Positions 37,924 to 53,668 of a stretch of 64,000 nt of DNA are shown here, one piece after another; positions within the stretch are counted from its first letter, which is position 1; every line of letters begins with the position of its first letter. Under the pieces are notes generated by a model. That model was given only the letters and a program-made list of their open reading frames with translations, was not told the origin of the DNA and made no database searches. Where the stretch lies: positions 34,019-98,018 of the IMG/VR virus record IMGVR_UViG_3300005739_000002. One strand, written 5' to 3'. A program made the position numbers and the translations under genes. The DNA comes from a virus.

Positions 37924-39957
37924 ATGCCATTATCTTTCAGATTTACAGAGGACTTCCTTAAGGAATATCGCAACAAGAAGGTACCTTGGGGATATAGGGA
38001 TGCGGGTGGCAACTCCGTTGGAGAAGTTACTTTCTTACGCACCTACTCTCGACTGAAAGAGGACGGCACTAAAGAGACTTGGGTAGATGTTTGCCAGCGA
38101 GTTATTGAGGGTATGTATTCCCTACAAAAAGACCACTGCAAAACCAATCGACTTCCTTGGAATGACTCCCGAGCTCAGGCTTCTGCTAAAGAGGCCTTTG
38201 ACCGCTTGTTTAATTTAAAGTGGACCCCACCAGGACGCGGTCTATGGGTTATGGGAACTCCCCTGGTCAATGAGCTCAAGAACTCTGCGGCTTTACAGAA
38301 CTGCGCCTTCGTGTCCACTGCCAGTATGACAAAGTTAGACCCCGCTAAACCATTTGCATTTTTAATGGAAGCGTCTATGTTGGGCGTAGGTGTCGGGTTT
38401 GATGACAAGGGTGCTGATAAAGACTTCACTATCTATGACCCACATCCAGATACCGACCCAATCGTCATCCCAGATACTCGAGAGGGGTGGGTTGAATCTG
38501 TAAGTTTGCTCATCAACTCCTATTTAATGCCCGATAAGAAGTCGCCTATATTTGACTATAGCGCTATCCGCCCTGCTGGTGTCCCAATTAAGACGTTTGG
38601 AGGCACGGCGGCTGGGCCAGAGCCACTGGTCAGGCTGCATGATTACATCCGTAACATATTTAAAGGTAGGGCTACTCAAAAGTTAACTAGGGTAGATATT
38701 GCGGATATAGGTAATTTAATAGGAGTCTGCGTGGTGTCTGGCAATGTGCGCCGCAGCGCTGAGCTACTCATGGGTAGATTAGACGATAAAGACTTCTTAA
38801 ATTTAAAGAACGCAAAGGTCTACCCTGAGCGTAACTCCTACGATGCATCCAACCCTGGTTGGGCCTGGATGTCTAATAATTCTGTAGAGGTTTCTGTCGG
38901 CTCTAATTTAGAAAACATAGTTGAGGGTATTGCTCTCAACGGGGAGCCTGGTGTTATCTGGATGGACGTTACTCGCAAGTACGGCCGTCTTATTGACCCG
39001 CCTAATAATAAAGACCATAGAGCCGCAGGTTATAACCCCTGCGCTGAGCAGTCCCTAGAGTCGTTTGAGTGCTGTACGTTGGTAGAAACCTACCTTAATC
39101 GTGCTGAATCTAAAGAAGATTACCTTCGTACTCTAAAGTTTGCTTATCTATATGCTAAGACTGTCACCTTGCTTCCTACTCACTGGGAAGAAACAAATGC
39201 GATTATGCAAAGGAACCGTCGTATTGGAACCTCTATGTCTGGTGTGGCTAACTTCGCTGATAGGGTTGGCATGCCTGTGCTTCGTGAGTGGATGGACGAG
39301 GGTTATCAGACAATACAAGACTACGATAAAACCTACTCTGAGTGGTTAGGTATCCGCGAATCTATTAAGACTACTACTGTAAAGCCTAGTGGCACGGTTT
39401 CTATATTAGCGGGAGAGTCTCCTGGAGTTCACTGGACTCCTGGTGGGAAGCACTTCCTTCGCGCTATCCGCTTTTCTAATGAAGACCCAATGCTACCTTT
39501 GTTTAAAGCGTCAGGTTATAAAATAGAAAAGGCTTCTGAATCACCAAAGACAACTAGCGTTGTTTATTTCCCGATTGAGAGCCAAGCCCTACGTTCAGAA
39601 AAAGATGTTTCTATATTTGAAAAGATGTCTTTAGCGGCTACCGCCCAGAGGCATTGGTCAGACAACAGCGTAAGCGTTACAGTATCCTTTAATTCAAATA
39701 CAGAAAAAGACGCCGTAGGAACCGTACTGCACATGTTTGACGGACAGCTCAAAACCGTTTCCTTCTTGCCTATGGGGAACGAGACCTATCCGCAAATGCC
39801 ATATACGCAAATAACTAAAGAAGAATACGATAAATACACATTTAAATTGCTTCCCATTGATTTTACTGATGTCTATGCGGGGATGGCCGCGGATGCTATT
39901 GGTGAGAAGTATTGCACTACAGACGCTTGTGAAGTAAGCTTTACTAAAATAGATTAG
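37924..39957 (+). CDS. nrdJ: class II (AdoCbl-dependent) ribonucleotide reductase
   Basis: PPGRGLW, ALQNCAF, GNVRRSAE, NPCAEQ, TTVKPSGTVS, C-terminal CTTDAC. Confidence 0.95.
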   Translation: MPLSFRFTEDFLKEYRNKKVPWGYRDAGGNSVGEVTFLRTYSRLKEDGTKETWVDVCQRVIEGMYSLQKDHCKTNRLPWNDSRAQASAKEAFDRLFNLKWTPPGRGLWVMGTPLVNELKNSAALQNCAFVSTASMTKLDPAKPFAFLMEASMLGVGVGFDDKGADKDFTIYDPHPDTDPIVIPDTREGWVESVSLLINSYLMPDKKSPIFDYSAIRPAGVPIKTFGGTAAGPEPLVRLHDYIRNIFKGRATQKLTRVDIADIGNLIGVCVVSGNVRRSAELLMGRLDDKDFLNLKNAKVYPERNSYDASNPGWAWMSNNSVEVSVGSNLENIVEGIALNGEPGVIWMDVTRKYGRLIDPPNNKDHRAAGYNPCAEQSLESFECCTLVETYLNRAESKEDYLRTLKFAYLYAKTVTLLPTHWEETNAIMQRNRRIGTSMSGVANFADRVGMPVLREWMDEGYQTIQDYDKTYSEWLGIRESIKTTTVKPSGTVSILAGESPGVHWTPGGKHFLRAIRFSNEDPMLPLFKASGYKIEKASESPKTTSVVYFPIESQALRSEKDVSIFEKMSLAATAQRHWSDNSVSVTVSFNSNTEKDAVGTVLHMFDGQLKTVSFLPMGNETYPQMPYTQITKEEYDKYTFKLLPIDFTDVYAGMAADAIGEKYCTTDACEVSFTKID

Positions 39958-39971
39958 GAGAAAAATTTAAT

Positions 39972-40214
39972 ATGAATCCAACAATATATACAAAACCAGA
40001 CTGCCCAGCATGCGACGCGACTAAAAAATACTTTAGTAAATACAATGTCGAGTATGTATCCGTTGATATTACGGAAAATGACGAGGCTCTAAACCTTATT
40101 AAATCTTTAGGGTATAACTACACGCCAGTAGTGGTGGTAAATGAATCTAACCATTGGCAGGGCTTTCGACCAGATAAAATTGCGTCATTAAAAACAATTA
40201 AACATGCTATTTAA
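39972..40214 (+). CDS. nrdH: NrdH-like glutaredoxin
   Basis: YTKPDCPAC.ATK, PVVV, WQGFRPDKI; follows RNR. Confidence 0.9.
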   Translation: MNPTIYTKPDCPACDATKKYFSKYNVEYVSVDITENDEALNLIKSLGYNYTPVVVVNESNHWQGFRPDKIASLKTIKHAI

Positions 40215-40476
40215 TAATAAAGCCTCTTGTGAAGGTCTTGAATCTGACATATTTTTTCCAGACGAAGCCAGTCACTATCAGTATTTATCAACAGTTAAAA
40301 AAATGTGTGATAATTGTTCAGCAAAATTAGAGTGCTTTGATTATGCTATAGAAAACGCGGTTCAGGGTATATGGGCAGGAACCACCTTTAATGAACGAGA
40401 CGCGTACAGACTAAAACATGGAATAGTCGCTAAAGGCGTTGTGCCAAATAATTTAGTTTACGACCATATCGCTTAA
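40204..40476 (+). CDS. whiB: second WhiB-family transcription factor
   Basis: C..FFP..CDNC..C..GIWAGTT..ER. Confidence 0.85.
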   Translation: MLFNNKASCEGLESDIFFPDEASHYQYLSTVKKMCDNCSAKLECFDYAIENAVQGIWAGTTFNERDAYRLKHGIVAKGVVPNNLVYDHIA

Positions 40477-40483
40477 TTAAATA

Positions 40484-40525
40484 AGAAAGCCCCACGTGTC
40501 AAAGCATAAGCACGTGGGGCTCTCT
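40484..40525. terminator. hairpin at convergence of + and - transcription units
   Basis: GAAAGCCCCACGTG..CACGTGGGGCTCTC. Confidence 0.7.
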
Positions 40526-40624
40526 CATTCCCGAGGAAGGCGCAGGTCTATCTCAGGCGAAGGGGTGCCTTCATGGATAGCCTTGGCGGGAGAGATAAGG
40601 AAACCGCCTTAACGCCGTTAAAAA

Positions 40625-40771
40625 CTAACATGAACCGCATTTAGTATCTACCCTTATATTTCTTTTATCTACGACTAACATACGACCACAATGATAGCAC
40701 GCTACGTACTTTACTTTGCTATTACGTTTATAAAGTTTAACTAGCGCTTCTAAATTAAGTTTAGTCGTCAT
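40625..40771 (-). CDS. small zinc-ribbon protein (48 aa, not in ORF track)
   Basis: MTTKLNL..CYHCG..CGSC; translated by hand. Confidence 0.5.
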   Translation of the reverse strand: MTTKLNLEALVKLYKRNSKVKYVACYHCGRMLVVDKRNIRVDTKCGSC

Positions 40772-40859
40772 CTTCTTCGTCCTCTTCAAATACGTCCTCG
40801 TCCTCTATATGGGGCATAGGTCTCTCCCACATAGGTTCGGGGATAATCGGGTTACTCAC
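40761..40859 (-). CDS. small acidic peptide (32 aa)
   Basis: VSNPIIPEPMWERPMPHIEDEDVFEEDEEDDD; overlap-coupled on both sides. Confidence 0.45.
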   Translation of the reverse strand: MSNPIIPEPMWERPMPHIEDEDVFEEDEEDDD

Positions 40860-41167
40860 GCGTTACTCTCTTGTTTATAGATTAGAGTGCCCTGAATTCT
40901 TACAGGCTTCTCGCTCTCATCAATAGAGGTGACCTCTAGTTTAATAGACTTGCGAGGCGTGAGTTGTTGGACTCTCTCTTTAATATAACGCTTACCTGCG
41001 CTGGCGTTAGACCATGCGGTTACGTTGTTATCAATTTCGATTTCGTCATATCCACCTAAGCCGTTACTGCGTAATTCGGTAATGGTGTAAGTGACTTTCC
41101 ATGCGCCACCCTTTACAGGGTTCTTTGCGAGCGTGGCTTTAAACGTACGCTCTACTTTTCTAGCCAT
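40856..41167 (-). CDS. hypothetical protein
   Basis: SD AAGGAG; operon packing. Confidence 0.6.
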   Translation of the reverse strand: MARKVERTFKATLAKNPVKGGAWKVTYTITELRSNGLGGYDEIEIDNNVTAWSNASAGKRYIKERVQQLTPRKSIKLEVTSIDESEKPVRIQGTLIYKQESNA

Positions 41168-41588
41168 TTAAGTTCTCCTTCGTAATAGGCCAATGGTAAG
41201 GCAGGGTTTCATCTACTAATGGGAAGTGTATCCTATAGTATTCGGGCAATTTTCGCACTAGGTTGGCTTGGTGCGATATATGTATGCGCTCGTCGCCTAA
41301 CCATGCTGGCATATCGGGCGCGGGTTTGTGTTGGAAGTGCTGGATAAGATTATCGTTGTAACCGCGACGTATCCACTCTAGGCATATCTCTCTCCCATAT
41401 AGTTTGAGAGCGTCAAGGTTATCTCTCCACATCAGCACCGCAGGGTGATTACGCCATGCGTTACTTTGTTGGGTACCGTCTAATACTCTTACTATTTGAT
41501 AAGCCTCTACACGTTGCTTACCTAGACGTTTATAATCTAATACGCGAGCGACTTCTGTAAAGTCTGCGTATGGTAGGAAAGTTTGCGT
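41160..41588 (-). CDS. pyrimidine-dimer DNA glycosylase / MSMEG_6728-like protein, apparent ACG start
   Basis: frame extends upstream of the track call: (ACG)QTFLPYADF..LDYKRLGKQRVEAYQI..WRNHPAVLMW..P.WLG..H.SHQANL.RK..Y.WP; AAGGAG 6 nt before ACG. Confidence 0.85.
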   Translation of the reverse strand, partial: TQTFLPYADFTEVARVLDYKRLGKQRVEAYQIVRVLDGTQQSNAWRNHPAVLMWRDNLDALKLYGREICLEWIRRGYNDNLIQHFQHKPAPDMPAWLGDERIHISHQANLVRKLPEYYRIHFPLVDETLPYHWPITKENLNG

Positions 41589-41598
41589 AACTCTCTCC

Positions 41599-41871
41599 TT
41601 ACGCTACGGGTTGATATTCGTATGGTAAATCTTTTACCTGTATTGGCACTAGTCCGTCGGTGCTATCGAAGTATAAACCTTTTAAGTCGTCCTCTACACC
41701 TGCGTCTAGGTGGCACGACTCCACTACTGGGTCGCTCTCATCTGAACCTATCCACGCAAGGGCTTCGGCTTCTGTATCGAATAGTTGTACGTCGTAGTAC
41801 GAATAGCCTTTGGGTTCATCGTTATCATCAACGAATACGGCTTTTATTACCCATTTCTCTTTGTAGTCCAT
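41599..41871 (-). CDS. acidic hypothetical protein
   Basis: GA-rich SD; stop codon overlaps SD of the next gene. Confidence 0.55.
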   Translation of the reverse strand: MDYKEKWVIKAVFVDDNDEPKGYSYYDVQLFDTEAEALAWIGSDESDPVVESCHLDAGVEDDLKGLYFDSTDGLVPIQVKDLPYEYQPVA

Positions 41872-41887
41872 ATCTCTCTCTCATTTA

Positions 41888-42034
41888 TTAAACGGTTGCT
41901 GGATTACCTGCTGGTGGTACGCACATTACGCAGAATCCTAGACCTATCTCGCTGGCTTCGTCAAGGGCTTCTGTATCAATGGGCACGATTACTTCCCCGT
42001 TGTCGTACTCGATAAAGCATTTAGCGCACCGCAT
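41888..42034 (-). CDS. small Cys-pair protein (48 aa)
   Basis: MRCAKC..CVMC; SD AGGAGAGAG. Confidence 0.5.
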   Translation of the reverse strand: MRCAKCFIEYDNGEVIVPIDTEALDEASEIGLGFCVMCVPPAGNPATV

Positions 42035-42045
42035 ATCTCTCTCTC

Positions 42046-42186
42046 CTACTTCTCTATTCCATATTTATCTAAACACTCGTCGCACATCTTACCGTGGCAA
42101 GCGCAGATAACTTCTGGATTATCCTCAGAATCTACGCCTGGAATCGTGCCGCGTAAATCCATCTGGGCATTTTTGTTACTACTCAC
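42046..42186 (-). CDS. small Cys-rich protein (46 aa)
   Basis: GTGA coupling; CACH..CDEC. Confidence 0.45.
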   Translation of the reverse strand: MSSNKNAQMDLRGTIPGVDSEDNPEVICACHGKMCDECLDKYGIEK

Positions 42187-42581
42187 TCTTTCTCTACTTC
42201 CTCATTTGTTTCTTGGGTTTCTAACTTTAACTCTGTGCCGTAACCCTGATATATAACTTTACCGTCGGCGTCGGTAACCGTTACGACATCACGGTCGCTG
42301 GTGATGAATTGGTGAAGGTGGTGACTCTCCACGATAGCCTCTACGGTTGCGTGGGTGCTTCCCTTGTAGGTGGTACCTTCGGGTAGTAATACTTGGGTCT
42401 GCCACTCGCCTTTATTAGCGTATTCGATAGCCCTAATACACACGTCGGTCATGCTAATCGGTACGGGTGGGTAGTGGTTGTTGGATAGGTGGAAGGCTAC
42501 TAACTTCCAATAATCGTTGGGTTCTTCTGTGAGGTCTGTATCCTCTACGAGTTCCGCGTCGATAATCTCATTGTTCTCCAT
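42183..42581 (-). CDS. hypothetical protein
   Basis: HLSNNHYPPVP..IVESHHL. Confidence 0.6.
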   Translation of the reverse strand: MENNEIIDAELVEDTDLTEEPNDYWKLVAFHLSNNHYPPVPISMTDVCIRAIEYANKGEWQTQVLLPEGTTYKGSTHATVEAIVESHHLHQFITSDRDVVTVTDADGKVIYQGYGTELKLETQETNEEVEKE

Positions 42582-42708
42582 TTAAGTCCTTATCTTTATA
42601 TTTAACTTTCCTAGTGTATCGCTTTTTATTAGTTAGAGGTACTGAAGCATTACTACGCCGTAACTCAAGGATACGGCGTAGTTGCTCTCTTGTCTTTGAT
42701 AGGCGCAT
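42568..42708 (-). CDS. small basic protein (46 aa)
   Basis: MRLSKTREQLRRILELRRSNAS..KKRYTRK; TAATG coupling. Confidence 0.5.
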   Translation of the reverse strand: MRLSKTREQLRRILELRRSNASVPLTNKKRYTRKVKYKDKDLNGEQ

Positions 42709-43019
42709 TAAATACCGTCTAGTCCGTACCCGTTCTCCATGTCGCGTGCGTCGGCTTCGTCAAGGATAGGCGCTCTTAGTCCTAATCTGTCCATGTCGGC
42801 TTCGATACTGTCGATAGCCTCATCTATCTCACCGCGTACTTCGTGGTAGTCGAAGTAACTTTCTAGTCGTTCGTCGCCGTGGCTACGCAGTACGCATAGG
42901 TCTAACGAAGCGCCAATAGCGGTGTCTAATAGGTGAATAGCGCTTGGGTCGCCATTTATATATTTAAGTACGAGGTCGTTATATTGACCTGTCTTAGGTA
43001 GAAAGTTTGTGCTGGTCAT
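42708..43019 (-). CDS. hypothetical protein
   Basis: ATGA coupling. Confidence 0.55.
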   Translation of the reverse strand: MTSTNFLPKTGQYNDLVLKYINGDPSAIHLLDTAIGASLDLCVLRSHGDERLESYFDYHEVRGEIDEAIDSIEADMDRLGLRAPILDEADARDMENGYGLDGI

Positions 43020-43180
43020 TTGCTCACGTCCTCTAGGTAGAATAGGTAGTCACCTATAGTTATTAGTAAGTTTATTAGATACTCGTCGGTTGCGTTGTGT
43101 GCTTTGACGTGACCCTGCGCTTGGGCTAGTAGGTCGCGTACTCGTTCTTTATAATCTATTGCTTCTGTTGCTATATCCAT
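43016..43180 (-). CDS. small hypothetical protein (54 aa)
   Basis: MDIATEAIDYKERVRDLL...; translated by hand. Confidence 0.45.
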   Translation of the reverse strand: MDIATEAIDYKERVRDLLAQAQGHVKAHNATDEYLINLLITIGDYLFYLEDVSK

Positions 43181-43263
43181 ATTTGTTTATCCATTTCTGT
43201 ATTTAAGTCGGAATCCCCTGCCCCGTAGCGCTTACCACGGGGCGGAGAATCCGAACGCTTGTT

Positions 43264-45132
43264 CTAGTGACGGGCGCTCATGGTCGCCTTCACTATGTCC
43301 TTCGCTAACTTCACCATGTCGGTTGGTTCCGCAATATCGCGGAAGTGCTTTGCGCCATGACGATAGCGTGCGACGGCTTTGTCGTACGCTTCTTTATCGC
43401 TATTCCAACGACGTAGGTCGTCGAGATATACGACGGCGGTCTGTACGCCGTCGGCGTTAAGGTCGGAGATTACCTTATCATTTTCCTCGGTCATATCCCA
43501 CTCGCCGTCGGTTACGATAAATAGCATACGCACGCCACGGCGACTAGATAGTAGGTGGCGTCGCGCTTCTAATAAGGCTTTGTAAGGATTAGTACCACCT
43601 GACGTATTGACGAAGCGGTATTCGGTAGGTTGCGCTTTGTCTGCCTGTGAGTAGATAAGCCTACTATCGTGGTTAAACTTATAGACCGCGACGCGACCGT
43701 TGATACGCTCGATACCGCGCTTGATAATCCATGCGCTTTCCATAACACGCTGAATCTGCCACGCCATACTGCCCGAAGTATCTACTAGGACTATTGCGTC
43801 TATGTCGTTGTTGCTATTGCCTTCGTGCCAACGGTCGAACACTTTGTCCATGTCGTTAATATCGGCACGCATGGCGCGACCTATATTTAAGCGACCCTCA
43901 GGTTGCTCTAATTGCCACGCAGGGTCGTTATCTATACGCACGCGCTCTAGGGCTACGGCGAAGGCGCGAGCGCTCGCAGATACTCTAGGGCTAACGGCTT
44001 GGTTGGAATAGTTACCTTGTTTAATAGCACTACGACGGTCACGGTTATCGTTAATAGCCTTACGGACTTCTTTAGCAGACCGTAATACTTCGTCGTTCTT
44101 GTTAAGGCTATCTAACCGTTCCTTAATATCTTTGCGTAGCACGTTATCGTCGGCTTCGTCCTTACCCTTGTTATCGAACGAACGGCTTGAGTTATCGTTA
44201 TCAGTATCGGTATCGGCAGGGTCTTTCATATCCTCAGTACCGCTACCTGCCTCGTCCTTGTTAGCCTTATTCTGTTGGGCTTCCTGTTCACGGTTACCCT
44301 TCATGCGACCCTTATCTTGTACGTCGCGGTCGCCGTGTCCATGTCCGTCCTTAGGAAGCATAGGCACGCCGTCCTTCTCGTTCACTTCGTCGCGTCCTAC
44401 TATGTCGGCTAATAGTCTTATTAACTCTAGTCCTCGGTCATAGTCGCGTGGGAATACGAGCGTGCGATACTCATGGATAATCAGCGCTAACGTCATGGCT
44501 ATATCTTTACCGAAGTGCTTTATAAATCTATCTGCGATTTCCTGACGTAACTCTATATCTAAATACTTACGACCCGTGATAAGTGGGAAGTAACTAGCGT
44601 ATTCCTCGGACTTACCCTTGAGTAAATACTCTAGGCATGACGCTTCTAAGAAAGGCGCAACGGACGGATACTTAGCGATAAGTAGCCGTTCGATACGGGC
44701 GTCCTCTAAGCAGTTATAGGCGTGTTGTAACCTCTCGGCTCTAATAGTCTTGCCAAACTCGCTACCGCTTCTAGGTGAATAAAGGACGTGGGCGACTTCA
44801 TGGTAATTAAATCCGTTGAGGGAGATAATAGTCCTATCGTCCACTTCCTCTAATAGGTGGGCGTTAAACACGATATTTTTACCGTCGTTATAGGCGGTGG
44901 TATCCATTTCAGGATTATCCTCAACGCGTACCTCTACGGGTTCTGCCGTGAGGATACGGTCGGTGCGACCATAGACCGCACCGACCGCCTGTAATTTGTT
45001 GATATGTTCCTCGATACGCTCGGCTTCTGCCTCTGCGTCAAACTCAGTATCACGATAGTTACCGTAACGTACCTGTGCGATAAGGTTATCCATAAGGTCG
45101 TTATGGTTATCGAACGCTTTGCGTGAGGACAT
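43264..45132 (-). CDS. vWA-domain protein with N-terminal HExxH (CobT-like) domain
   Basis: HEVAH, NCLEDARIE, MIDAS DTSGS, GGT, VTDG. Confidence 0.85.
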   Translation of the reverse strand: MSSRKAFDNHNDLMDNLIAQVRYGNYRDTEFDAEAEAERIEEHINKLQAVGAVYGRTDRILTAEPVEVRVEDNPEMDTTAYNDGKNIVFNAHLLEEVDDRTIISLNGFNYHEVAHVLYSPRSGSEFGKTIRAERLQHAYNCLEDARIERLLIAKYPSVAPFLEASCLEYLLKGKSEEYASYFPLITGRKYLDIELRQEIADRFIKHFGKDIAMTLALIIHEYRTLVFPRDYDRGLELIRLLADIVGRDEVNEKDGVPMLPKDGHGHGDRDVQDKGRMKGNREQEAQQNKANKDEAGSGTEDMKDPADTDTDNDNSSRSFDNKGKDEADDNVLRKDIKERLDSLNKNDEVLRSAKEVRKAINDNRDRRSAIKQGNYSNQAVSPRVSASARAFAVALERVRIDNDPAWQLEQPEGRLNIGRAMRADINDMDKVFDRWHEGNSNNDIDAIVLVDTSGSMAWQIQRVMESAWIIKRGIERINGRVAVYKFNHDSRLIYSQADKAQPTEYRFVNTSGGTNPYKALLEARRHLLSSRRGVRMLFIVTDGEWDMTEENDKVISDLNADGVQTAVVYLDDLRRWNSDKEAYDKAVARYRHGAKHFRDIAEPTDMVKLAKDIVKATMSARH

Positions 45133-46679: not shown

Positions 46680-46762
46680 AAGACCCCTTCGTATGGGTGG
46701 CGGTGTTGCCACGCCCCGAGCCTACCCTATTTCCGTATTTAAGTATCTCTCCTTCTCCAATT

Positions 46763-46781
46763 CTCAGGAAGTTATCCACAA
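46763..46781. promoter_or_regulatory. extended DnaA box 1
   Basis: CTCAGGAAG-TTATCCACA (46772-46780). Confidence 0.8.
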
Positions 46782-46911
46782 CCCCCTATCCTGATAACTC
46801 TCTGCGATAAGGCTATTAAATCTGGCCGTCCACCCACTCACTTAATACGGCTATTAAGCAGTAGCCTTCTCTCTCTCTCCTATCACGGCCGACGGCTTTT
46901 GGCAACTCTCT

Positions 46912-46930
46912 CTCAGGAACTTATCCACAG
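46912..46930. promoter_or_regulatory. extended DnaA box 2
   Basis: CTCAGGAAC-TTATCCACA (46921-46929). Confidence 0.8.
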
Positions 46931-46931
46931 G

Positions 46932-47073
46932 GTTTGTGTTGGCTCAAGGCTTGCAGCGTTGAGCCAATAGCAATGACCGCCATTTCTATATTAGAAATGG
47001 CGACATTTAGGGTGGGTACGAGTATTTCGGTATAATTTAATACCGAAATACGAGAGGGTGGGCCAACACAAAC
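46932..47073. repeat. cassette-boundary palindrome, type C (multi-hairpin)
   Basis: GTTTGTGTTGGC..GCCAACACAAAC enclosing CGCCATTTCTA/TAGAAATGGCG and GTATTTCGGTAT/ATACCGAAATAC hairpins. Confidence 0.8.
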
Positions 47074-47130
47074 TTTCCCGCAGCGGCAGCAGAGCCGTGA
47101 TTTGGTCTCCACGGTCTCCACCTCACCACC

Positions 47131-47175
47131 AAAAAGCCCTACTAGATGGCATCCTGCCTGTCTAATAGGGCTTTC
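47131..47175 (-). terminator. intrinsic terminator
   Basis: AAAAAGCCCTA.TAGA..TCTA.TAGGGCTTT, U-tract on minus strand. Confidence 0.65.
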
Positions 47176-47190
47176 TAGGGGGTATGTCCG

Positions 47191-47676
47191 CTAGCAGATT
47201 TCGAATCCACCGCTATCTGCTAAGAACTCTGCGAACTCTCGTACGTTCTCTGTTGAGAAGGGATAGTGTTTCTCCCAAGGTTCCTTCTCACGGGTTCCAT
47301 TACACGAATTACACGGGTCACGGAACTTTACAACGCCTTCTTCATAGTCAGGCCACTCAGGTTTTACCTGAACAATACCCATACCGTCACAGAAGTCGCA
47401 TTTTACATTTGGTAGGCTTTCTAAATAAGCCTTGTATTCCTTCTCATAGGCTTCACATGAGCCGTCTGATAGTTTTATCATAAGGACTTGTGATAGGAGT
47501 TCTGCGCCTTCGGCGCCTAACCCGTCACCGTCGTTGTAGTGCCCACTCACACCATTGACTAGGTCAGGTGCTACACGCTCTACATAATCCCATAGTGGTC
47601 GCCACCACCATACATTATTACGGAAGTACTCCCCTTTCTCGGATTTGGGAGCCTTACCATACACGTCCATACCCAT
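47191..47676 (-). CDS. hypothetical protein with DnaJ-like CxxCxGxG zinc finger
   Basis: MGMDVYG..YFRNNVWWWRPLW; CDFCDGMG, CNSCNGT; SD GAGGT. Confidence 0.7.
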   Translation of the reverse strand: MGMDVYGKAPKSEKGEYFRNNVWWWRPLWDYVERVAPDLVNGVSGHYNDGDGLGAEGAELLSQVLMIKLSDGSCEAYEKEYKAYLESLPNVKCDFCDGMGIVQVKPEWPDYEEGVVKFRDPCNSCNGTREKEPWEKHYPFSTENVREFAEFLADSGGFEIC

Positions 47677-47677
47677 A

Positions 47678-48199
47678 CTACTTACCTCGCTTTCTTTTCT
47701 TACCACCCAATAAGTCCTCGATAGTCATATCTAATAGGGCTATTGGGTCTTCTTTTTCGGCGGCCTCTACGATAGGCGTATTAGGGCGAAGGATTATTAG
47801 CAGGTCGTCAGGTGTATCCAACTCTAACTGATGTAGAAACTTGGCGTAAGTTCCCATTAGCATAGCCATTGGAGTAAAGGCGCCTACTACCCACGCTACA
47901 TGGATAGCCATGCTTGCCGTAGATAGGTCGTCGTCTGTGACTTCCTCGTCGTTCGCAACCTTATCAGCAAGAGTCGAGAAGCCTGTGTTGGCGAGCGCAT
48001 TTATCATATTGCCAATAAACGCCTCGTCCTCACGCATTTTGACCGCCTGTGCCATGATAGCGGTCTTTAGGTTGCCGTCTGATAAGCCTTTCGTACCGTC
48101 AGGCAACTTAGGGTCATACATATCGTTATCAGGGTCGCCCATAAGTTCTATAGACGACATAATCTCAGTAAAGCGCACCTTGCGCTCGCTACTGTTCAT
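47678..48199 (-). CDS. hypothetical protein
   Basis: first gene of cassette; SD AAGGGGG. Confidence 0.65.
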   Translation of the reverse strand: MNSSERKVRFTEIMSSIELMGDPDNDMYDPKLPDGTKGLSDGNLKTAIMAQAVKMREDEAFIGNMINALANTGFSTLADKVANDEEVTDDDLSTASMAIHVAWVVGAFTPMAMLMGTYAKFLHQLELDTPDDLLIILRPNTPIVEAAEKEDPIALLDMTIEDLLGGKKRKRGK

Positions 48200-48263
48200 T
48201 TACTACCCCCTTTGATAGGTGGCGCAACTCTACTCTCACTCTCCGTCATATAGCCATAACACT

Positions 48264-48282
48264 CTCAGAAACTTATCCACAG
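48264..48282. promoter_or_regulatory. extended DnaA box 3
   Basis: CTCAGAAAC-TTATCCACA (48273-48281); TAGAGT -10 40 nt downstream on minus strand. Confidence 0.8.
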
Positions 48283-48299
48283 GCCATCTCTCAAGCCTA

Positions 48300-48397
48300 T
48301 TTTGTTTGTGCTGGGGGCTTTTGGGCATAGGTGGGTTGAAAACCGTACCTATGCAGAGATAGCTACTTATTACCAAAAGCCCCCAGCACAAACAAAA
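48300..48397. repeat. cassette-boundary palindrome, type A
   Basis: 25-bp perfect arms TTTTGTTTGTGCTGGGGGCTTTTGG / complement; inner GCATAGGT/ACCTATGC; bulge GATAGCTACTTATTA. Confidence 0.9.
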
Positions 48398-48425
48398 AGG
48401 CCGCGAGGGAAGTCGCGGCCTTCTT
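48394..48425 (-). terminator. intrinsic terminator whose U-tract is the palindrome arm
   Basis: AAAAAGGCCGCGA..TCGCGGCCTT. Confidence 0.75.
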
Positions 48426-48442
48426 ATGACTAGGGGAAGAGT

Positions 48443-48925
48443 CTAGTCTTGTTCCTCTGCAGAGAACTCAAGATTGCTGATGATATCGCCGTCATCATAA
48501 TCAACCTCAACTGAATCAGAGGTACGTCCTTCGCCGTCGTATTCGATATCGAATGTTAGGCGTGCATTGTGAATGCTAAGGTTATCTTCTACTTCTGCGA
48601 TAGCGTCTTCCTCGGTATCGGCTTTTACATCAGTTACCTCTAGAATGTTTTCATAGAGGTAGGAAACCGTAACAGTCCAAGTACGGATTAGTGTGTCGAG
48701 GGTAGGCCATGAAACAGAGCCAACCTTCTCAGCGATAGCGTTGTATATCTCAAGGCCTTGCGCCTCGGTAACAACCTCGTTAGTAACCTTATCTCTTAGT
48801 ACATCTAAGGTTATAGTGTTGATAATGCCAACTGATTTCTCATGTTGGTTGTGACGTGTGGCAAAGACTTCGTTGTCTACCTCTTCTTTGGTATAAACTG
48901 TCTCACCGTTTATCGTATGTGACAT
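48443..48925 (-). CDS. acidic hypothetical protein
   Basis: single-gene cassette. Confidence 0.65.
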   Translation of the reverse strand: MSHTINGETVYTKEEVDNEVFATRHNQHEKSVGIINTITLDVLRDKVTNEVVTEAQGLEIYNAIAEKVGSVSWPTLDTLIRTWTVTVSYLYENILEVTDVKADTEEDAIAEVEDNLSIHNARLTFDIEYDGEGRTSDSVEVDYDDGDIISNLEFSAEEQD

Positions 48926-49001
48926 TTTCTCTCTTCCCGTAGACGCACCTTGCGCCCACGGGTCGAGTCTAATATAACTCTTTTTACAGGTCTCTCACGC
49001 T

Positions 49002-49020
49002 CACAGGAAGTTATCCACAG
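49002..49020. promoter_or_regulatory. extended DnaA box 4
   Basis: CACAGGAAG-TTATCCACA (49011-49019); TAGACT -10 39 nt downstream on minus strand. Confidence 0.8.
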
Positions 49021-49040
49021 GCTCTCTCCTAGCCCTATTA

Positions 49041-49130
49041 TGTTTGTGCTGGGCTTGCTGGTATAGGCAGTGATGATAATCCGTACCTATACCGTGATAG
49101 CTACTTATTACAGCAAGCCCAGCACAAACA
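49041..49130. repeat. cassette-boundary palindrome, type A
   Basis: 20-bp perfect arms TGTTTGTGCTGGGCTTGCTG / complement; inner GTATAGG/CCTATAC; bulge GATAGCTACTTATTA. Confidence 0.9.
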
Positions 49131-49157
49131 AAAGCCCCCGCATCTCTGCGGGGGCTT
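49130..49157 (-). terminator. intrinsic terminator
   Basis: AAAAGCCCCCGCA..TGCGGGGGCTT. Confidence 0.75.
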
Positions 49158-49169
49158 CGTAGTCTTATC

Positions 49170-49565
49170 TTAGAGCCATTGTGATACAGACTTATAGAGG
49201 CTCGCAGGAACATCAGGTTGTGCGGTCATACCTAGCAACTTGATAGTCTTACGGAGTTCCTCGTAATCGTTATCGTTGAACATGCCGTCAGGGCGGTCAG
49301 GGCGTTCTACCTGAGTAGGCAGTTTATCCTTATCTACCTTGAACTCAATTTCCAAAATACCATTCCACGAACGATAGTTAGTGTTATGGATTTCTAACTT
49401 ACCTGACTTTGCCAATGCGATAATCTTACTAGCAAAGGCTTCTTGTGCTTTGTTGTATTTTTCCTCTGCCTTCTTGTAGTCGGCACGGAACTTGTCTTGC
49501 TCGGCTAATCTGCCGTTTAGTGCGTCTAATAGGACTAGCCTATCTACTTTGATGGTTGTAGCCAT
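49170..49565 (-). CDS. hypothetical coiled-coil protein
   Basis: purine-rich SD; followed by terminator. Confidence 0.65.
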   Translation of the reverse strand: MATTIKVDRLVLLDALNGRLAEQDKFRADYKKAEEKYNKAQEAFASKIIALAKSGKLEIHNTNYRSWNGILEIEFKVDKDKLPTQVERPDRPDGMFNDNDYEELRKTIKLLGMTAQPDVPASLYKSVSQWL

Positions 49566-49592
49566 CTACCTTCCCTTTCTTATAGTTGTTGG

Positions 49593-49797
49593 TGAGCAGT
49601 TGTTCTACGACATACTCAGGTCGTTAGGATTACGCAGGTTTGCACCTACTATCCCCCTAACCCTAACGGGGTCTTGCCCTTTATTTTTCTAATCGTTGGC
49701 TACGATTACCCTTCCGTTCGGCGGTTCGCCTACTAGGCGGGATACTGATAAGCCTTTTATCCACTTGCTCAGGTGGTTCTCACGGGGGGTGAGAAAG
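49593..49797 (-). ncRNA. candidate structured RNA/leader with two compact pseudoknots
   Basis: CCAC-CTGAGCAA-GTGG..GGCTTA and ACGAC-CTGAGTAT-GTCGT..CTGCTCA; GCAA tetraloop hairpin between them. Confidence 0.5.
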
Positions 49798-50220
49798 TCA
49801 GAGTAGGTCTTTATCTACGCTGAAAAGGTCTTTTAGTGTGTTGAGTTGTTTAGCGTATTTGCGGGCTAGTGCCTTGTAGTAATCACGCTCGGCTTCTAAG
49901 TCCGAGATTAGTTTATCTACTTTGCTAATAGCCTTATCGGTAGTCATGCGCTCTGAACGCTTTGTGTATTTGCGTTTAGTGCGTTTGATAGCGTTAGCAG
50001 GATTATGTGTCCCTACATGTATGGACATCTGTGCCCTTGTTGGGGTCATGTGTCCGCAGATTTGGCAACCGAACATAGTTGTTCCGTCTAGCCATAGCAG
50101 TTCCACCATGTTGTGGAAGTAATGTCCCTTTGCCATTGGATTAGGCACGGGTTGGGATTGTAAAGGTGCGATGTTATTTCGCAAGAACTTTTGTTTGATA
50201 GTATCACCCCCCTCGTTCAT
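49798..50220 (-). CDS. C2H2-like zinc-finger protein (start uncertain)
   Basis: CQICG..H...H followed by basic segment and coiled coil. Confidence 0.6.
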   Translation of the reverse strand: MNEGGDTIKQKFLRNNIAPLQSQPVPNPMAKGHYFHNMVELLWLDGTTMFGCQICGHMTPTRAQMSIHVGTHNPANAIKRTKRKYTKRSERMTTDKAISKVDKLISDLEAERDYYKALARKYAKQLNTLKDLFSVDKDLL

Positions 50221-50337
50221 CTCTTTAGTGTTGCTCCTTTAGGAGTTGGTCGGCGACCATGTTGCTCTCCCTTCGTTAGTGTGGGCTTGTTCCCACTGAC
50301 TTATTCAACCATAATCTCAATAATCTATTTCATGGCA

Positions 50338-50356
50338 CTCAGGAAGTTATCCACAG
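50338..50356. promoter_or_regulatory. extended DnaA box 5
   Basis: CTCAGGAAG-TTATCCACA (50347-50355). Confidence 0.8.
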
Positions 50357-50369
50357 GTATCTCGTAAGG

Positions 50370-50449
50370 TTGTTTGTGTCGGGGCTTATGGGTGCATATA
50401 TCTATATAGCACCCGTAACACACACGCCCATAAGCCCCGACACAAACAA
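50370..50449. repeat. cassette-boundary palindrome, type B
   Basis: 23-bp perfect arms TTGTTTGTGTCGGGGCTTATGGG / complement; inner TATATAGC and ACACACGCCC. Confidence 0.9.
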
Positions 50450-50475
50450 AAAGCCCCGCCTTTCGGCGGGGCTCC
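50448..50475 (-). terminator. intrinsic terminator
   Basis: AAAAAGCCCCGCC-TTTC-GGCGGGGCT (GAAA tetraloop on minus strand). Confidence 0.8.
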
Positions 50476-50487
50476 TTGTTAGGCTTG

Positions 50488-51498
50488 TTAGACGCCAGCC
50501 AATTCGCGGACGGCGCGGAGTATGCGCCCCTTCTCGGCATTGACCACTGGGTCAAAGCCACTTGCCGCGCCCTTGAGCGCCTCGCCATTGGCGGTGCGAC
50601 CAGTGCGGAAATAGTCAATGCGCTCAGTGAGAGCATTGAGAGCGCCCCAATAGGTGCCCTTGATTGTTGATTGCGTAGGGGATACATGGTAAATATCCTC
50701 TAGGAGGTCGCGCTTAGCCTGCCACTTGGTCATAACTTGTGGCGCAACCGCATTGGCGTCGGGTTGCGGATAAATGGCATTGACCAATTTATCCCAATCC
50801 GCATTGGAGAGAGGAGCCTCGAAAAGAGACTTTGCGATGGACTCAAAAGAATCCATGTGAGCGAAGGTGAGACCTAGCACGCGACGCGCTTCCGCAATGC
50901 GACCCTCGACCTTGAGAGTGTGGCGCAACTTGAATGATTGCTTACATCCAGCCAGCGCCATGTTGAGCGTATTTTGGCAGACAACACGAACGGGCGTGAT
51001 TGACGCTTGAACGCTTGCGCTCCCGTCATGGGAGGTATGAACGAGCAGATAGGTGAGAGTCTTATCATTCGCCCCTTGAGGGTCGATGATGAACTCACGA
51101 GGAACGACAAGGCTACCGAAAACAACCTTGCCATTCTTGATTGAGCCAGCAGATTCCCAACTGGCGCCCCCGTCGAGAATGTTATCCCCGAATGTGAAAA
51201 GTTCCTCATTCTGGAATACGCGATAACGCTTACCGACAACCGCGAGGACATCGGTTCCAGCGTCGAACGGATTGGTGCGAACGACCATGTGAAGGTCGGT
51301 CTTTGAGCGATAGCCAGCGGGATACTGGACATCCTCTAGGCGAACATTCCAGTTCGCTAACTTTGCCGAATCCAACATGACATCGGTTGTCACATGTTCA
51401 TCAGCAGAAAAGATACGATTGGCGAGACCATGCCATGCGGGAGCGCCACGCAATGCGAACGCCACCTCACCGCCTTGAATCTCTAAATCGTGAGCCAT
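50488..51498 (-). CDS. DUF932 / TIGR03299-type phage-plasmid protein
   Basis: MAH..PAWHGL, Y..FQN, ESAGS..G, SHDGS, TPVRVVCQNTL, RHT, GT.WGA.NA.TE..D. Confidence 0.9.
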   Translation of the reverse strand: MAHDLEIQGGEVAFALRGAPAWHGLANRIFSADEHVTTDVMLDSAKLANWNVRLEDVQYPAGYRSKTDLHMVVRTNPFDAGTDVLAVVGKRYRVFQNEELFTFGDNILDGGASWESAGSIKNGKVVFGSLVVPREFIIDPQGANDKTLTYLLVHTSHDGSASVQASITPVRVVCQNTLNMALAGCKQSFKLRHTLKVEGRIAEARRVLGLTFAHMDSFESIAKSLFEAPLSNADWDKLVNAIYPQPDANAVAPQVMTKWQAKRDLLEDIYHVSPTQSTIKGTYWGALNALTERIDYFRTGRTANGEALKGAASGFDPVVNAEKGRILRAVRELAGV

Positions 51499-51571
51499 AA
51501 CAGCCCCCTTCTATGCGAGACCTTCTCGCATGCGCTCACCCTATCAGATACATCTCTCAACCCTATTAGTT

Positions 51572-51590
51572 CTCAGAAAGTTATCCACAG
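51572..51590. promoter_or_regulatory. extended DnaA box 6
   Basis: CTCAGAAAG-TTATCCACA (51581-51589); TAGGGT -10 37 nt downstream on minus strand. Confidence 0.8.
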
Positions 51591-51596
51591 GGCGCG

Positions 51597-51686
51597 ATGT
51601 TTGTGTTGGGCTGCTTATGTGTGTATATGAAGATATATAGCGAAATGTTTATACACACACGCCCATAAGCAGCCCAACACAAACAT
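51597..51686. repeat. cassette-boundary palindrome, type B
   Basis: 23-bp perfect arms ATGTTTGTGTTGGGCTGCTTATG / complement; inner TGTGTATA/TATACACA, TATATAGC, ACACACGCCC. Confidence 0.9.
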
Positions 51687-51691
51687 TCTTC

Positions 51692-51705
51692 GTTTCACGT
51701 GAAAC
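51692..51705. promoter_or_regulatory. parS: parS centromere-like site (ParB-binding consensus)
   Basis: perfect intergenic palindrome GTTTCACGTGAAAC, 15/16 match to TGTTTCACGTGAAACA. Confidence 0.8.
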
Positions 51706-51738
51706 AAAAAGGCCCGAGCGGGAAGGTGCTCGGGCCTC
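51706..51738 (-). terminator. intrinsic terminator
   Basis: AAAAAGGCCCGAGC..GCTCGGGCCT. Confidence 0.75.
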
Positions 51739-51758
51739 TTCGTAGGGGGTTTATAACC

Positions 51759-52058
51759 TCACGCCATCGCTGGCGTGAAGATTCGACGGATATAGTTTTG
51801 CTGCTTGCTTGTAGTGACGCTGAACTTCTGATTCACTACGTACCAACCATTGGCCCCATACCATGCGATTGGCGTGCTATATGATAAGACTACGTAGGCG
51901 CCCTCTTTAAAGTCTTCTACTAGTCTACTGTATTCCTCGCCTAGGCGTCCAGGTCCTGGCGTGTAGTTGTAATAACGGCCACTAAGTGAAGAGGCTTCGA
52001 ATGCTTGACGGTTAGCAATGCGCTCCATCGCTTCTTTCTGATTGACCTGCAGTCTCAT
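51759..52058 (-). CDS. hypothetical protein
   Basis: YVVLSYSTPIAW..W..KFSVTTSKQQ; ATGA coupling. Confidence 0.7.
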   Translation of the reverse strand: MRLQVNQKEAMERIANRQAFEASSLSGRYYNYTPGPGRLGEEYSRLVEDFKEGAYVVLSYSTPIAWYGANGWYVVNQKFSVTTSKQQNYIRRIFTPAMA

Positions 52059-52249
52059 GCGTCCTCCCTTGTACTGTGCCAGTAATCGGCCGCGGCTTCT
52101 GCCCTGTCCGCGTAATCCTGCTCACCCTCACTGTAACCCTTGAGGTAACCTGATATCTTGCCAGACCTGTAGGCGAAGAATCCGACAACAAGAGCAACGA
52201 GGATGTCAACGAGTAAGTTGAAACCGTTATAGAAGATGATTTCATTCAC
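52055..52249 (-). CDS. small membrane protein
   Basis: one TM segment then GY..GY..G; GTGA coupling at 52249. Confidence 0.55.
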   Translation of the reverse strand: MNEIIFYNGFNLLVDILVALVVGFFAYRSGKISGYLKGYSEGEQDYADRAEAAADYWHSTREDA

Positions 52250-52383
52250 GCTAGCGCTTTCCTTTCCTCGTCGGCGCATGTGTAGCAGATACGCCCGACG
52301 AATTCCAAAACACCTAACACGAACGCATCAACGCCACTGTGTACAATATTGCCGTCCTGCGTGGTACCGCATTTATAACACAT
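52246..52383 (-). CDS. small Cys-pair protein (45 aa)
   Basis: MCYKCG..CYTC; SD AGGGG. Confidence 0.5.
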   Translation of the reverse strand: MCYKCGTTQDGNIVHSGVDAFVLGVLEFVGRICYTCADEERKALA

Positions 52384-52458
52384 TTATAACCCCTAATCTG
52401 TGAGCCCCTTGCTCACTGGGATAAACTTAGCAGGCCTGGGATATATATCAATAACCCT

Positions 52459-52477
52459 CACAGAAAGTTATCCACAG
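52459..52477. promoter_or_regulatory. extended DnaA box 7
   Basis: CACAGAAAG-TTATCCACA (52468-52476); TAAGTT -10 38 nt downstream on minus strand. Confidence 0.8.
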
Positions 52478-52500
52478 GCAAACTCTCCTCCTATAACTCC

Positions 52501-52570
52501 CTATATTAGAACGGGGTGGGAGGGCCAACACAAACATGCGAGAGCCCCGCGCCTTGCGACGCGGGGCTTC
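52501..52570. repeat. half palindrome (type C remnant) plus terminator
   Basis: CTATATTAGAA..GGGCCAACACAAACA without left arm, then AGCCCCGCG..CGCGGGGCT. Confidence 0.6.
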
Positions 52571-52580
52571 GCTCTACTAC

Positions 52581-52955
52581 TTATGAAATTGTCGTCGTGC
52601 TCATGAGGCGGTCATCCTGAGCCTCGCCTACTTTTTCGTACCAACGGGTATCGCGCTGGATGAATGCTGCGATTATGTTAGACCATAGATTTACATGGTC
52701 AGAGCCATAATAAGGGGCGATTTTGATGTCGCATAGTTGCGTCATGTAATCGAAGTCCCATAGTTGGAACCCCTTATCATTTACCACTAGGCGGTATCCA
52801 CCTTGAGGTAATAGTTGAGAGTAAATTGGCATGGATACCAATTCGCGCTCGCGGTCAATATCTACCTCGCCGAATTCATAGAGCGAGTGTTCCGCGTTTA
52901 GTCTGCCCTCTAGTTCAGGGGTCAGACCTCCTGCGAAAGTGTAAAGAATAGTCAT
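52581..52955 (-). CDS. hypothetical protein
   Basis: first gene of the minus-strand block. Confidence 0.6.
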   Translation of the reverse strand: MTILYTFAGGLTPELEGRLNAEHSLYEFGEVDIDRERELVSMPIYSQLLPQGGYRLVVNDKGFQLWDFDYMTQLCDIKIAPYYGSDHVNLWSNIIAAFIQRDTRWYEKVGEAQDDRLMSTTTIS

Positions 52956-53047
52956 CTGACTAAACCTTCCCTACTTGGGGCGCTTACTCCTTGTTCAGCG
53001 CCCAGTGAGATAAACTTATGGCATAACCCTATTAGATACAACCGACA

Positions 53048-53086
53048 CTCAGAAAGTTATCCACAATCACAGAAAGTTATCCACAA
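53048..53086. promoter_or_regulatory. tandem extended DnaA boxes 8 and 9 (20-bp direct repeat)
   Basis: CAGAAAGTTATCCACAA x2 (boxes 53057-53065, 53077-53085); TTGTAT-N17-TAAGTT promoter follows on minus strand. Confidence 0.85.
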
Positions 53087-53203
53087 CCTAACCCTCTACC
53101 TGAGGTTGAGGGGTAGGGGTTAGACGACACGCCCGACCGCGTGGGTGGCAGGTAACATGAGTACCTATTTATACATTTAGTAGGCAGTAGCCTATAATAG
53201 AGT

Positions 53204-53668
53204 GTGCGAATAATGCGAAAGTACGGGAAGGGACACCTCGCCTTTACGCGGGGCAAGTTCGATGACTGGGCAGTCTATGTTAAATACCCAATGTTTCCTC
53301 AATGGCCCACAGACAAGTGGTACTTTATTAAGCTGCGGAGTATGGCCCTCTATGGACCCGCATACGATGATTTTGTCGCCCTTTACGATAAGACCACGGC
53401 GGAAGTTGATGAGCTGGTTTTTGACTGGATTGACGGGATAAGTACTAAGTACCCCAATGCCGAGGAGGCCGCGGTTATCTTTGGTATCTTCTATATGACT
53501 ATGATTGCAGAAGAGAACAAGGACGGGGCTATCCTAAAGAAAAGAATTAAGAGGCTAGGTGTCCATCAAGTACTCAAGGAGGGCATGAAACCAGAGCTGG
53601 CGGCTAACTATTCGCGGGGAAAGCCCGTCGGAGAGTTAACTTTAGAGTGTCACAAGAGAGGGTTCTGA
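53204..53668 (+). CDS. hypothetical protein
   Basis: TATAAT-N5-GTG; RGKFDDW..MIAEENK..KRIKRLG. Confidence 0.65.
   Translation: MRIMRKYGKGHLAFTRGKFDDWAVYVKYPMFPQWPTDKWYFIKLRSMALYGPAYDDFVALYDKTTAEVDELVFDWIDGISTKYPNAEEAAVIFGIFYMTMIAEENKDGAILKKRIKRLGVHQVLKEGMKPELAANYSRGKPVGELTLECHKRGF

Follow-up and report, generated by a model that had tools for sequence, protein, structure and literature searches.

Avoidance of restriction sites is commonly assessed for entire genomes. According to PMC12455610, the published bioinformatic surveys ignored where in a genome the sites lie. T5-like phages resist Type I and Type II restriction unless sites are present in the first-step-transfer DNA, Type III restriction regardless of sites in that DNA, and clustered regularly interspaced short palindromic repeats (CRISPR) immunity unless the target lies there (PMC10644984; bioRxiv 10.1101/866236). 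In T5, repeats, palindromes and eight DnaA boxes make up the injection-stop region (bioRxiv 10.1101/866236). For the T7-like Murciavirus, it was shown experimentally that Type I motifs matter only in the early-injected region (PMC12455610). The leading regions of conjugative plasmids enter first, are enriched in anti-defence functions and are richer in G+C (GC), and their short palindromes are not consistently depleted (PMC13478746). Here we describe a 13-kb block of a phage genome from which several short palindromes have been purged. It lies at 39,938 to 53,330 of a 64,000-nucleotide stretch, hereafter the window, which covers positions 34,019 to 98,018 of IMG/VR virus record IMGVR_UViG_3300005739_000002 and is the final part of a single 98,018-bp viral contig. 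Coordinates are those of the window unless stated otherwise.

The scarcity of AGCT, reported in a preliminary description of this DNA, was readily confirmed. Between 39,950 and 53,320 the word occurs only twice, compared to raw counts of 178 in the left flank (39.9 kb) and 54 in the right flank (10.7 kb); an order-2 Markov model of both strands predicts 40.6 occurrences (about 50 had been estimated). The two longest stretches of the 98-kb genome without AGCT, 39,937 to 48,361 (8.4 kb) and 49,099 to 53,331 (4.2 kb), jointly constitute the block, and the third measures 1.5 kb. At the outside rate of 4.76 sites per kb, the probability of finding none in 8.4 kb is approximately 4e-18. Under the same model, observed over expected numbers in the block were 7/34.6 for TGCA, 19/52 for GGCC (1/19 between 40.5 and 46.8 kb), 0/39.8 for GATC and 0/26.2 for CCGG. 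Five-letter palindromes were affected as well, with 1/18.6 for GGWCC, compared to 177/155 in the rest of the genome, and 4/15 for CCWGG; GCWGC is also low. The most depleted four- and five-letter words of the block are all palindromes, namely GATC, AGCT, CCGG, TGCA, GGCC, GGWCC and CCWGG. The remaining 85 kb, which contain about 400 AGCT sites, show no depletion of AGCT, TGCA, GGCC, GGWCC or CCWGG, and the purge of these words and of TTAA is confined to 14% of the genome.

The other details of the preliminary description could all be reproduced. No TGCA is found between 39,913 and 46,952, no GCWGC between 38,753 and 46,953, and neither CCAG nor CTGG between 43,012 and 46,822. A single GGCC occurs between 39,885 and 46,824, at 41,188, where it is forced by a Trp-Pro pair (TGG-CCT), and both AGCT sites of the block lie within the unpaired bulge of two long hairpins. 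The block had also been said to coincide exactly with the region of opposite-strand genes. This holds on the right, at the divergent junction between block and plus-strand genes (52,956 to 53,203, 248 bp), where the edge is sharp to about 100 bp and the first AGCT, at 53,331, lies within the first plus-strand gene. On the left it holds to within about 0.6 kb, since the purge extends by that distance beyond the final gene on the minus strand, across two small plus-strand genes; the convergent junction between the WhiB-like gene (plus strand) and the last block gene (minus strand), at 40,477 to 40,624, lies near this edge.

Codon usage was controlled by permuting the synonymous codons of 22 block genes (10.2 kb) 1000 times, with protein sequence and block codon usage kept. 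AGCT was observed 0 times in these genes, compared to 41.9±5.2 in the shuffled sequences (minimum 25); for TGCA, GGCC and CCWGG, the observed numbers were 4, 9 and 3, compared to 21.0, 36.3 and 12.8. The same control, applied to genes from outside the block (26.8 kb), gave values near expectation for AGCT (130/154.5), TGCA (105/110.6), GGCC (47/51.4) and GCWGC (74/80.7), only GATC (0/73) and CCGG (0/40) being purged there. The depletion therefore persists under both the codon-shuffle and the Markov control, and for AGCT, TGCA and GGCC it is limited to the block rather than genome-wide, so that neither of the two outcomes named in the preliminary description as refuting was obtained. AGC and GCT trinucleotides are merely slightly rarer in the block. 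Furthermore, since palindromes are strand-symmetric, gene orientation cannot produce the depletion. Palindromes at the top of the list of depleted words are the mark of Type II restriction rather than of a strand or codon bias. A second layer of avoidance extends over the whole genome: neither GATC nor CCGG occurs anywhere in the 98 kb, and TGCGCA is absent outside the block (10.6 expected). Rarity of TCGA outside the block was considered as a further case of specific avoidance and rejected, as it proved to be a trinucleotide and CpG-junction effect. The Streptomyces phage Samisti12 has no GATC in its 133.7 kb.

A scan with the CobS-like protein encoded in the block retrieved 20 related IMG/VR contigs (L001-L020), with 50 to 83% identity. 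In 20 of 20 the block adjoins an oppositely oriented gene for ribonucleotide reductase (RNR). Two related genomes are whole (96.9 and 95.5 kb); both are collinear with the present one, and the minus-strand block is their sole region poor in AGCT, GGCC, GCWGC and CCWGG. Tables of observed and Markov-expected counts for each locus showed the purge in every related block and in no flank. The purged set comprises six to eight unrelated palindromes per genome and is lineage-specific, differing even between close lineages: TGCA is purged in part of the lineages only, and ACGT, GTAC, TTAA, CGCG and ATAT are variable additions. Thus, GTAC has observed/expected values of 0-1/19 in the block and 19/20 in the flank of L003, L007 and L020, and L013-L019 additionally purge ACGT, GTAC, CGCG and ATAT. 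The contrast is well illustrated by L012, where block and flank values are 2/31 versus 24/32 for AGCT, 0/23 versus 10/20 for GGCC, 0/25 versus 19/24 for TGCA, 3/18 versus 33/28 for TTAA, 0/18 versus 8/18 for ACGT and 0/20 versus 19/19 for GTAC; in this contig, CCGG is frequent genome-wide and missing from the last 4 kb of the block. GATC is absent from all 20 related loci and CCGG from most of them. In the Actinomycetia phage DSL-LC01 (OQ999401.1, L053-L059; 129 kb, RNR 77% identical) no block-limited purge was found. DSL-LC01 contains no ATAT or TTAA anywhere in its genome.

Divergence is faster in the block genes than in the adjacent RNR gene, with identities of 50 to 83% for CobS, 33 to 80% for CobT and 79 to 94% for RNR. 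Fourfold degenerate sites of CobS are only 32 to 33% identical between this genome and distant lineages, which corresponds to saturation. As the purge persists and has been re-tuned despite saturated synonymous sites, it must be maintained by selection specific to the block. Analysis of these sequences indicates that such selection continues to act in all lineages of the family, and that neither codon usage nor a relic of gene transfer accounts for the pattern. Host restriction repertoires likewise vary from lineage to lineage. We consider it highly likely that restriction pressure acting specifically on the block is the cause of the purge.

Why should such pressure be specific to one block? 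Terminase, portal, capsid, tail sheath and baseplate genes identify the source as a contractile-tailed phage; further genes specify a helicase, a family A DNA polymerase, RNR and a WhiB-like regulator. The WhiB gene and the actinophage relatives point to a host that is very probably an actinobacterium; a GC content of about 0.45 and the occurrence of relatives in IMG/VR metagenomes suggest an uncultured lineage. The nearest cultured relatives are the Streptomyces phages BRock, LuckySocke, Alone3 and GiJojo (54% identity for the large terminase subunit TerL and, by local tblastn, 73% for the major capsid protein), and gene order between the terminase and a DpdA-like gene is collinear with that of LuckySocke. 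The LuckySocke genome is bounded by an exact terminal repeat of 344 bp, and BRock has one of 221 bp, defined by double coverage (PMC7453282). In both phages, an opposite-strand block of small genes begins about 0.87 kb from the physical end and reads inward. From the collinearity and from these terminal blocks, the block described here is predicted to be terminal as well, in which case the physical end would lie at the divergent junction, that is, at the sharp right edge of the purge. The 221- to 344-bp repeats of the relatives speak against a direct terminal repeat of some 10 kb around the block. Another parallel is provided by the DUF932 protein of the block, whose homologues in Samisti12 and its relatives (54 to 57% identity) are encoded 1.2 kb from the end, inside a 10.7-kb terminal repeat, where minus-strand genes are likewise arrayed with spaces between them. 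In all three phages the early or terminal block (40 to 53 kb of the window, 100 to 114.5 kb of LuckySocke, 1 to 10.7 kb of Samisti12) is 4 to 7% GC-richer, and CpG-richer, than the remainder of the genome, as plasmid leading regions are GC-rich (PMC13478746).

The block falls into two parts, both on the minus strand. Sub-block A (40,625 to 46,712) is a compact operon of about 12 genes with 0 AGCT, 0 TGCA, 0 GCWGC, 1 GGCC and a normal frequency of TTAA. Sub-block B (46,713 to 53,203) is an array of single-gene cassettes; it contains the two AGCT sites, some GGCC and TGCA, and there is one TTAA between 47,037 and 53,280. Each cassette of sub-block B is preceded by a conserved 23-nt element containing a perfect TTATCCACA, the DnaA-box word, and long hairpins and terminator-like stems accompany the cassettes. 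A word search found nine perfect, co-oriented copies of TTATCCACA on the minus strand, at 46,772, 46,921, 48,273, 49,011, 50,347, 51,581, 52,468, 53,057 and 53,077 (range 46,772 to 53,085). The copies are spread over 6.3 kb, with one to each cassette, and only one further copy exists in the rest of the 98-kb genome. Among the relatives the copy number ranges from 0 to 11, some having none. To judge from their placement, these words could act as promoter or operator elements. Two long hairpins, also on the minus strand, lie at 48,296 to 48,400 (z -10.8) and 49,034 to 49,138 (z -7.8), and their common unpaired bulge carries the AGCT sites at 48,361 and 49,099. The bulge (GUAAUAAGUAGCUAUC on the transcript strand) is conserved in both hairpins (48,340 to 48,382 and 49,078 to 49,120). 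Having been kept despite the purge, it is presumably a binding site. A perfect parS-type word, GTTTCACGTGAAAC, none being expected by chance, occurs at 51,692 to 51,705 inside the purged block; no parAB was seen.

The terminal blocks of BRock and LuckySocke, the cassette architecture and the T5-like association of DnaA boxes with hairpins form the indirect basis for reading the block as DNA that is the first to enter or to be expressed. A lone infecting chromosome does not normally survive a double-strand cut, wherever this falls. If any cut is fatal, the sharp contrast between the block and the remaining 85 kb implies that the latter is inaccessible while the block is exposed, and ordered entry is the known way of achieving this. 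We propose that first entry, or at least first exposure, is probably the reason for the block-specific pressure, and with similar, moderate confidence we regard the block as first-exposed, probably first-entering, early DNA devoted to host takeover. The packaged genome would be linear with short direct terminal repeats, like those of the closest cultured relatives, and the block would form one of its ends, entering first, or alone for a time, in a manner comparable to first-step transfer in T5 or transcription-coupled entry in T7. It would then be exposed to host Type II restriction enzymes before any phage-made protection is available. The remainder, rich in AGCT, TGCA and GGCC, would enter or become accessible only after proteins encoded by the block, among which the many small acidic ones are candidates, have neutralised restriction. 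GATC and CCGG may be avoided genome-wide because the protection made by the block misses the enzymes that cut them. Finally, the CobS/CobT-like genes, which are the cleanest part of the block in all lineages, would be its oldest residents, and the cassettes of sub-block B, with their fast turnover, would be less clean because purging is slow.

The gene content of the block may be considered in this light. In sub-block A, a CobS/MoxR-like AAA+ ATPase (45,132 to 46,712; Pfam AAA_5, 4e-23; phrog_249) is accompanied by a CobT-like protein with a von Willebrand A (VWA) domain (43,264 to 45,132), about nine small and mostly acidic proteins, and a pyrimidine-dimer DNA glycosylase-like gene (41,160 to 41,600; Pfam Pyr_excise, 8e-23) that contains the sole Trp-Pro GGCC. 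The Pyr_excise match starts about 160 nt upstream of the first ATG, GTG or TTG of the open reading frame, and the gene seems to use a non-canonical start. The DUF932 gene (50,488 to 51,498; Pfam 3.8e-49) belongs to sub-block B. For the other block proteins, all matches in Pfam, PHROGs and the ESM Atlas were weak or unnamed, and a nucleotide search of the block against GenBank phages gave none. In total, the block encodes about 20 small, mostly acidic proteins without known function. The strongly acidic ones (isoelectric point 4.1 to 4.6, up to 23% Asp+Glu, no named family) are encoded on the minus strand at 41,599-41,871, 42,183-42,581, 42,708-43,019, 47,191-48,199, 48,443-48,925 and 52,581-52,955, and from their composition are possible DNA mimics.

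Several observations weigh against entry or exposure of the block ahead of the rest. Among its proteins, comparison with Pfam and PHROGs gave no ArdA- or Ocr-type match and no recognisable anti-restriction gene, and no family of the T5 A1/A2 type, of which analogues are possible. The terminal position comes from synteny only, the block proteins having no homologues in LuckySocke, and the 248-bp divergent junction is shorter than the non-coding ends of LuckySocke and BRock. Neither the LuckySocke terminal block nor the 10.7-kb terminal repeat of Samisti12 shows a comparable palindrome purge. We know of no stepwise entry described for contractile-tailed phages. The assembly is of circular type and ends in a tandem repeat, not at physical ends. 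The 'direct terminal repeat' label of the record had to be rejected: the overlapping contig ends (1 to 80 and 97,939 to 98,018 of the contig, the latter being 63,921 to 64,000 of the window) share a 55-bp k-mer overlap within a 12-nt tandem repeat, CAGCGCCTCCAG, in a coding region, and this is an assembly overlap. A 252-bp end overlap of the related genome G1 was likewise rejected as a terminus, as it maps inside genes. In 13 of the 20 related contigs the sequence stops in sub-block B, on the upstream side of the CobS-like gene or inside it (loci given for contig stops: L002-L009, L012, L014-L018 and L020). These stops were not retained as termini either: within one lineage they fall at different homologous positions, which indicates assembly breaks in a variable, repeat-rich region and suggests strain-level hypervariability of the cassettes. 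A scan with the neighbouring DUF7004 gene for contigs ending at the junction yielded four loci only.

The last point on this side is that the two sub-blocks differ in part of their purge, A lacking TGCA, GGCC and GCWGC, and B lacking TTAA; a single common exposure does not predict different word sets. The difference may reflect residence time, if the cassettes of sub-block B turn over and purging is slow, and cassette exchange may explain part of it. Alternatively, TTAA and AATT might be rare in sub-block B because AT-rich words to which a silencer such as Lsr2 binds are avoided.

Of the rivals, we give most weight to early expression in the absence of ordered entry, although we judge it unlikely. 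The whole genome would enter at once, and only cuts in the early block would be fatal, through loss of protective and repair proteins, those elsewhere being prevented in time or mended. Cassettes with a conserved upstream element and with hairpins or terminators for each gene do fit an early region, the phage possesses RecA-like and resolvase-type genes that match annotated LuckySocke genes, and no physical end could be located at the block in the analyses of contig ends. Nevertheless, inhibitors fast enough to save the other 85 kb, with their 400 or so AGCT sites, would also save the block. As a single cut is normally lethal, this scheme hardly yields an all-or-none contrast with edges sharp to about 100 bp.

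Still less likely, in our estimation, is self-avoidance, in which the block would resist early sequence-specific nucleases or a DNA-modifying enzyme of the phage itself rather than host restriction. T5 degrades host DNA during first-step transfer, and how T5 DNA is spared is not known (PMC10644984). The present genome contains an HNH gene and a DpdA-like gene (36,369 to 37,814, plus strand, 481 amino acids; PHROG 887 [phrog_887, queuine tRNA-ribosyltransferase/DpdA-like], 4e-50), the LuckySocke homologue of which is annotated as hypothetical. An explanation by DpdA and 7-deazaguanine was considered and rejected: the DpdA-like protein does not match the Pfam TGT model, a search of the genome for the TGT and QueC families gave no match, and one modification enzyme would not explain many lineage-specific palindromes. 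More generally, six to eight unrelated palindromes, varying between close lineages, would require many nucleases in one phage, and no restriction-type nuclease was seen in the block in the Pfam and PHROGs searches. Self-avoidance would moreover still require the remainder of the genome to be absent or protected.

The alternative put forward in the preliminary description, a foreign module that keeps the avoidance pattern of a donor phage lineage with another host range, is largely refuted as sole cause and appears very improbable. In its favour, the composition of the block differs from that of the genome (GC 0.48 to 0.50 compared to 0.44 elsewhere, with CpG, TCGA and CGCG commoner), the best protein matches are in other actinophage groups (Gordonia phages for the CobT-like protein, Streptomyces BE phages for DUF932), and sub-blocks A and B purge different sets. 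However, the block occupies the same position in all 20 relatives, down to 50% CobS identity; the purge outlasts saturation of the synonymous sites, its sets change within the family and in the block only, and the block shares the genome-wide avoidance of GATC and CCGG. A GC-rich terminal or early block is also found in LuckySocke and Samisti12. A compositional or codon-usage artefact, to which the distinct GC content and dinucleotide style of the block might have pointed, is refuted by the Markov and codon-shuffle controls and by the strand symmetry of palindromes, and deserves practically no credence.

A more specific version of staged entry can be formulated, which we offer as speculative and rather doubtful. 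A T5-like two-step entry might have arisen independently in contractile-tailed phages of low-GC, probably freshwater, Actinobacteria. The 13-kb block would be the first-step DNA, the DnaA boxes, hairpins and parS word would serve as a brake or anchor keeping the remainder of the chromosome outside, and block proteins, possibly the AAA+/VWA pair, would release the second step and shut down restriction. If two-step entry is true, block-limited purging of palindromes would be a general marker, readable from sequence, of staged entry in uncultured phages.

The signal reported here is all-or-none within 14% of a genome, has a right edge sharp to about 100 bp and is re-tuned in each lineage. Purging could thus give access, by sequence alone, to the first-exposed DNA of uncultured phages and thereby to their likely anti-defence gene set, and the purged sets may be taken as a read-out of the restriction specificities of unidentified hosts. 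The 20 or so small, mostly acidic block proteins become prime candidates for new anti-restriction functions. Besides T5, this would be a second, unrelated system in which DnaA boxes and hairpins are paired with restriction-free early DNA, and the DnaA-brake idea proposed for T5 could be compared across both.

Among described systems, the first-step DNA of T5 and other Tequintavirus members is the closest. There too, a sub-genomic segment lacks restriction sites that are numerous in the remainder (PMC10644984); it makes up about 8 to 14% of the genome, encodes small proteins without known function, which in T5 take over the host, and is accompanied by repeats, palindromes and several DnaA boxes (eight in T5; nine here, with long hairpins and a parS word). 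The differences are nevertheless considerable. T5 is a siphovirus of E. coli whose segment lies in a terminal repeat of about 10 kb, whereas the present phage has a contractile tail and its closest relatives have repeats of 221 to 344 bp. The DnaA boxes of T5 are gathered in one non-coding region instead of being placed one per cassette over 6.3 kb, and its A1/A2 pre-early proteins, needed for the second step, have no family match here in the Pfam and PHROGs searches. Two-step entry is known for T5 and hypothetical here. For the purge, the evidence in T5 is experimental and concerns a few 6-bp sites, whereas here it is statistical and concerns many words of 4 to 5 bp.

T7-like phages resemble the present one in that early genes are read inward from the leading end (here, the predicted end) and in that the early region is hypervariable and rich in anti-defence genes, such as that for T7 Ocr, or in candidates for them here. 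They are, however, podoviruses in which all genes point in the direction of entry and RNA polymerase drives entry, whereas here only the block reads inward from the predicted end and the adjoining 40 kb are on the other strand. Transcription could not draw in the remainder of the genome, which is oriented oppositely. The motifs also differ, being of Type I in T7-like phages and Type II-like palindromes here. Plasmid leading regions are, like the block, GC-richer than the remainder, but they enter as single strands and show no consistent depletion, whereas depletion in the block is extreme. The genome-wide avoidance of Type II sites in phages, in which palindromes of 4 to 6 bp are under-represented, has its counterpart here in GATC, CCGG and TGCGCA. 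BRock and LuckySocke share the collinear core genome and an opposite-strand block of small genes at the physical end, and Samisti12 (BE1 cluster) shares the DUF932 homologue in its terminal repeat and a GC- and CpG-richer block; unlike the block described here, those of LuckySocke and Samisti12 are not comparably purged, and that of LuckySocke has no protein homology with it. The principle of selection against restriction sites on first-entering DNA is already known from the experiments on T5 and T7-like phages. What is new is its setting, an actinobacterial myovirus akin to BRock with an opposite-strand block and one DnaA box per cassette, and a strong purge of multiple words that varies between lineages.

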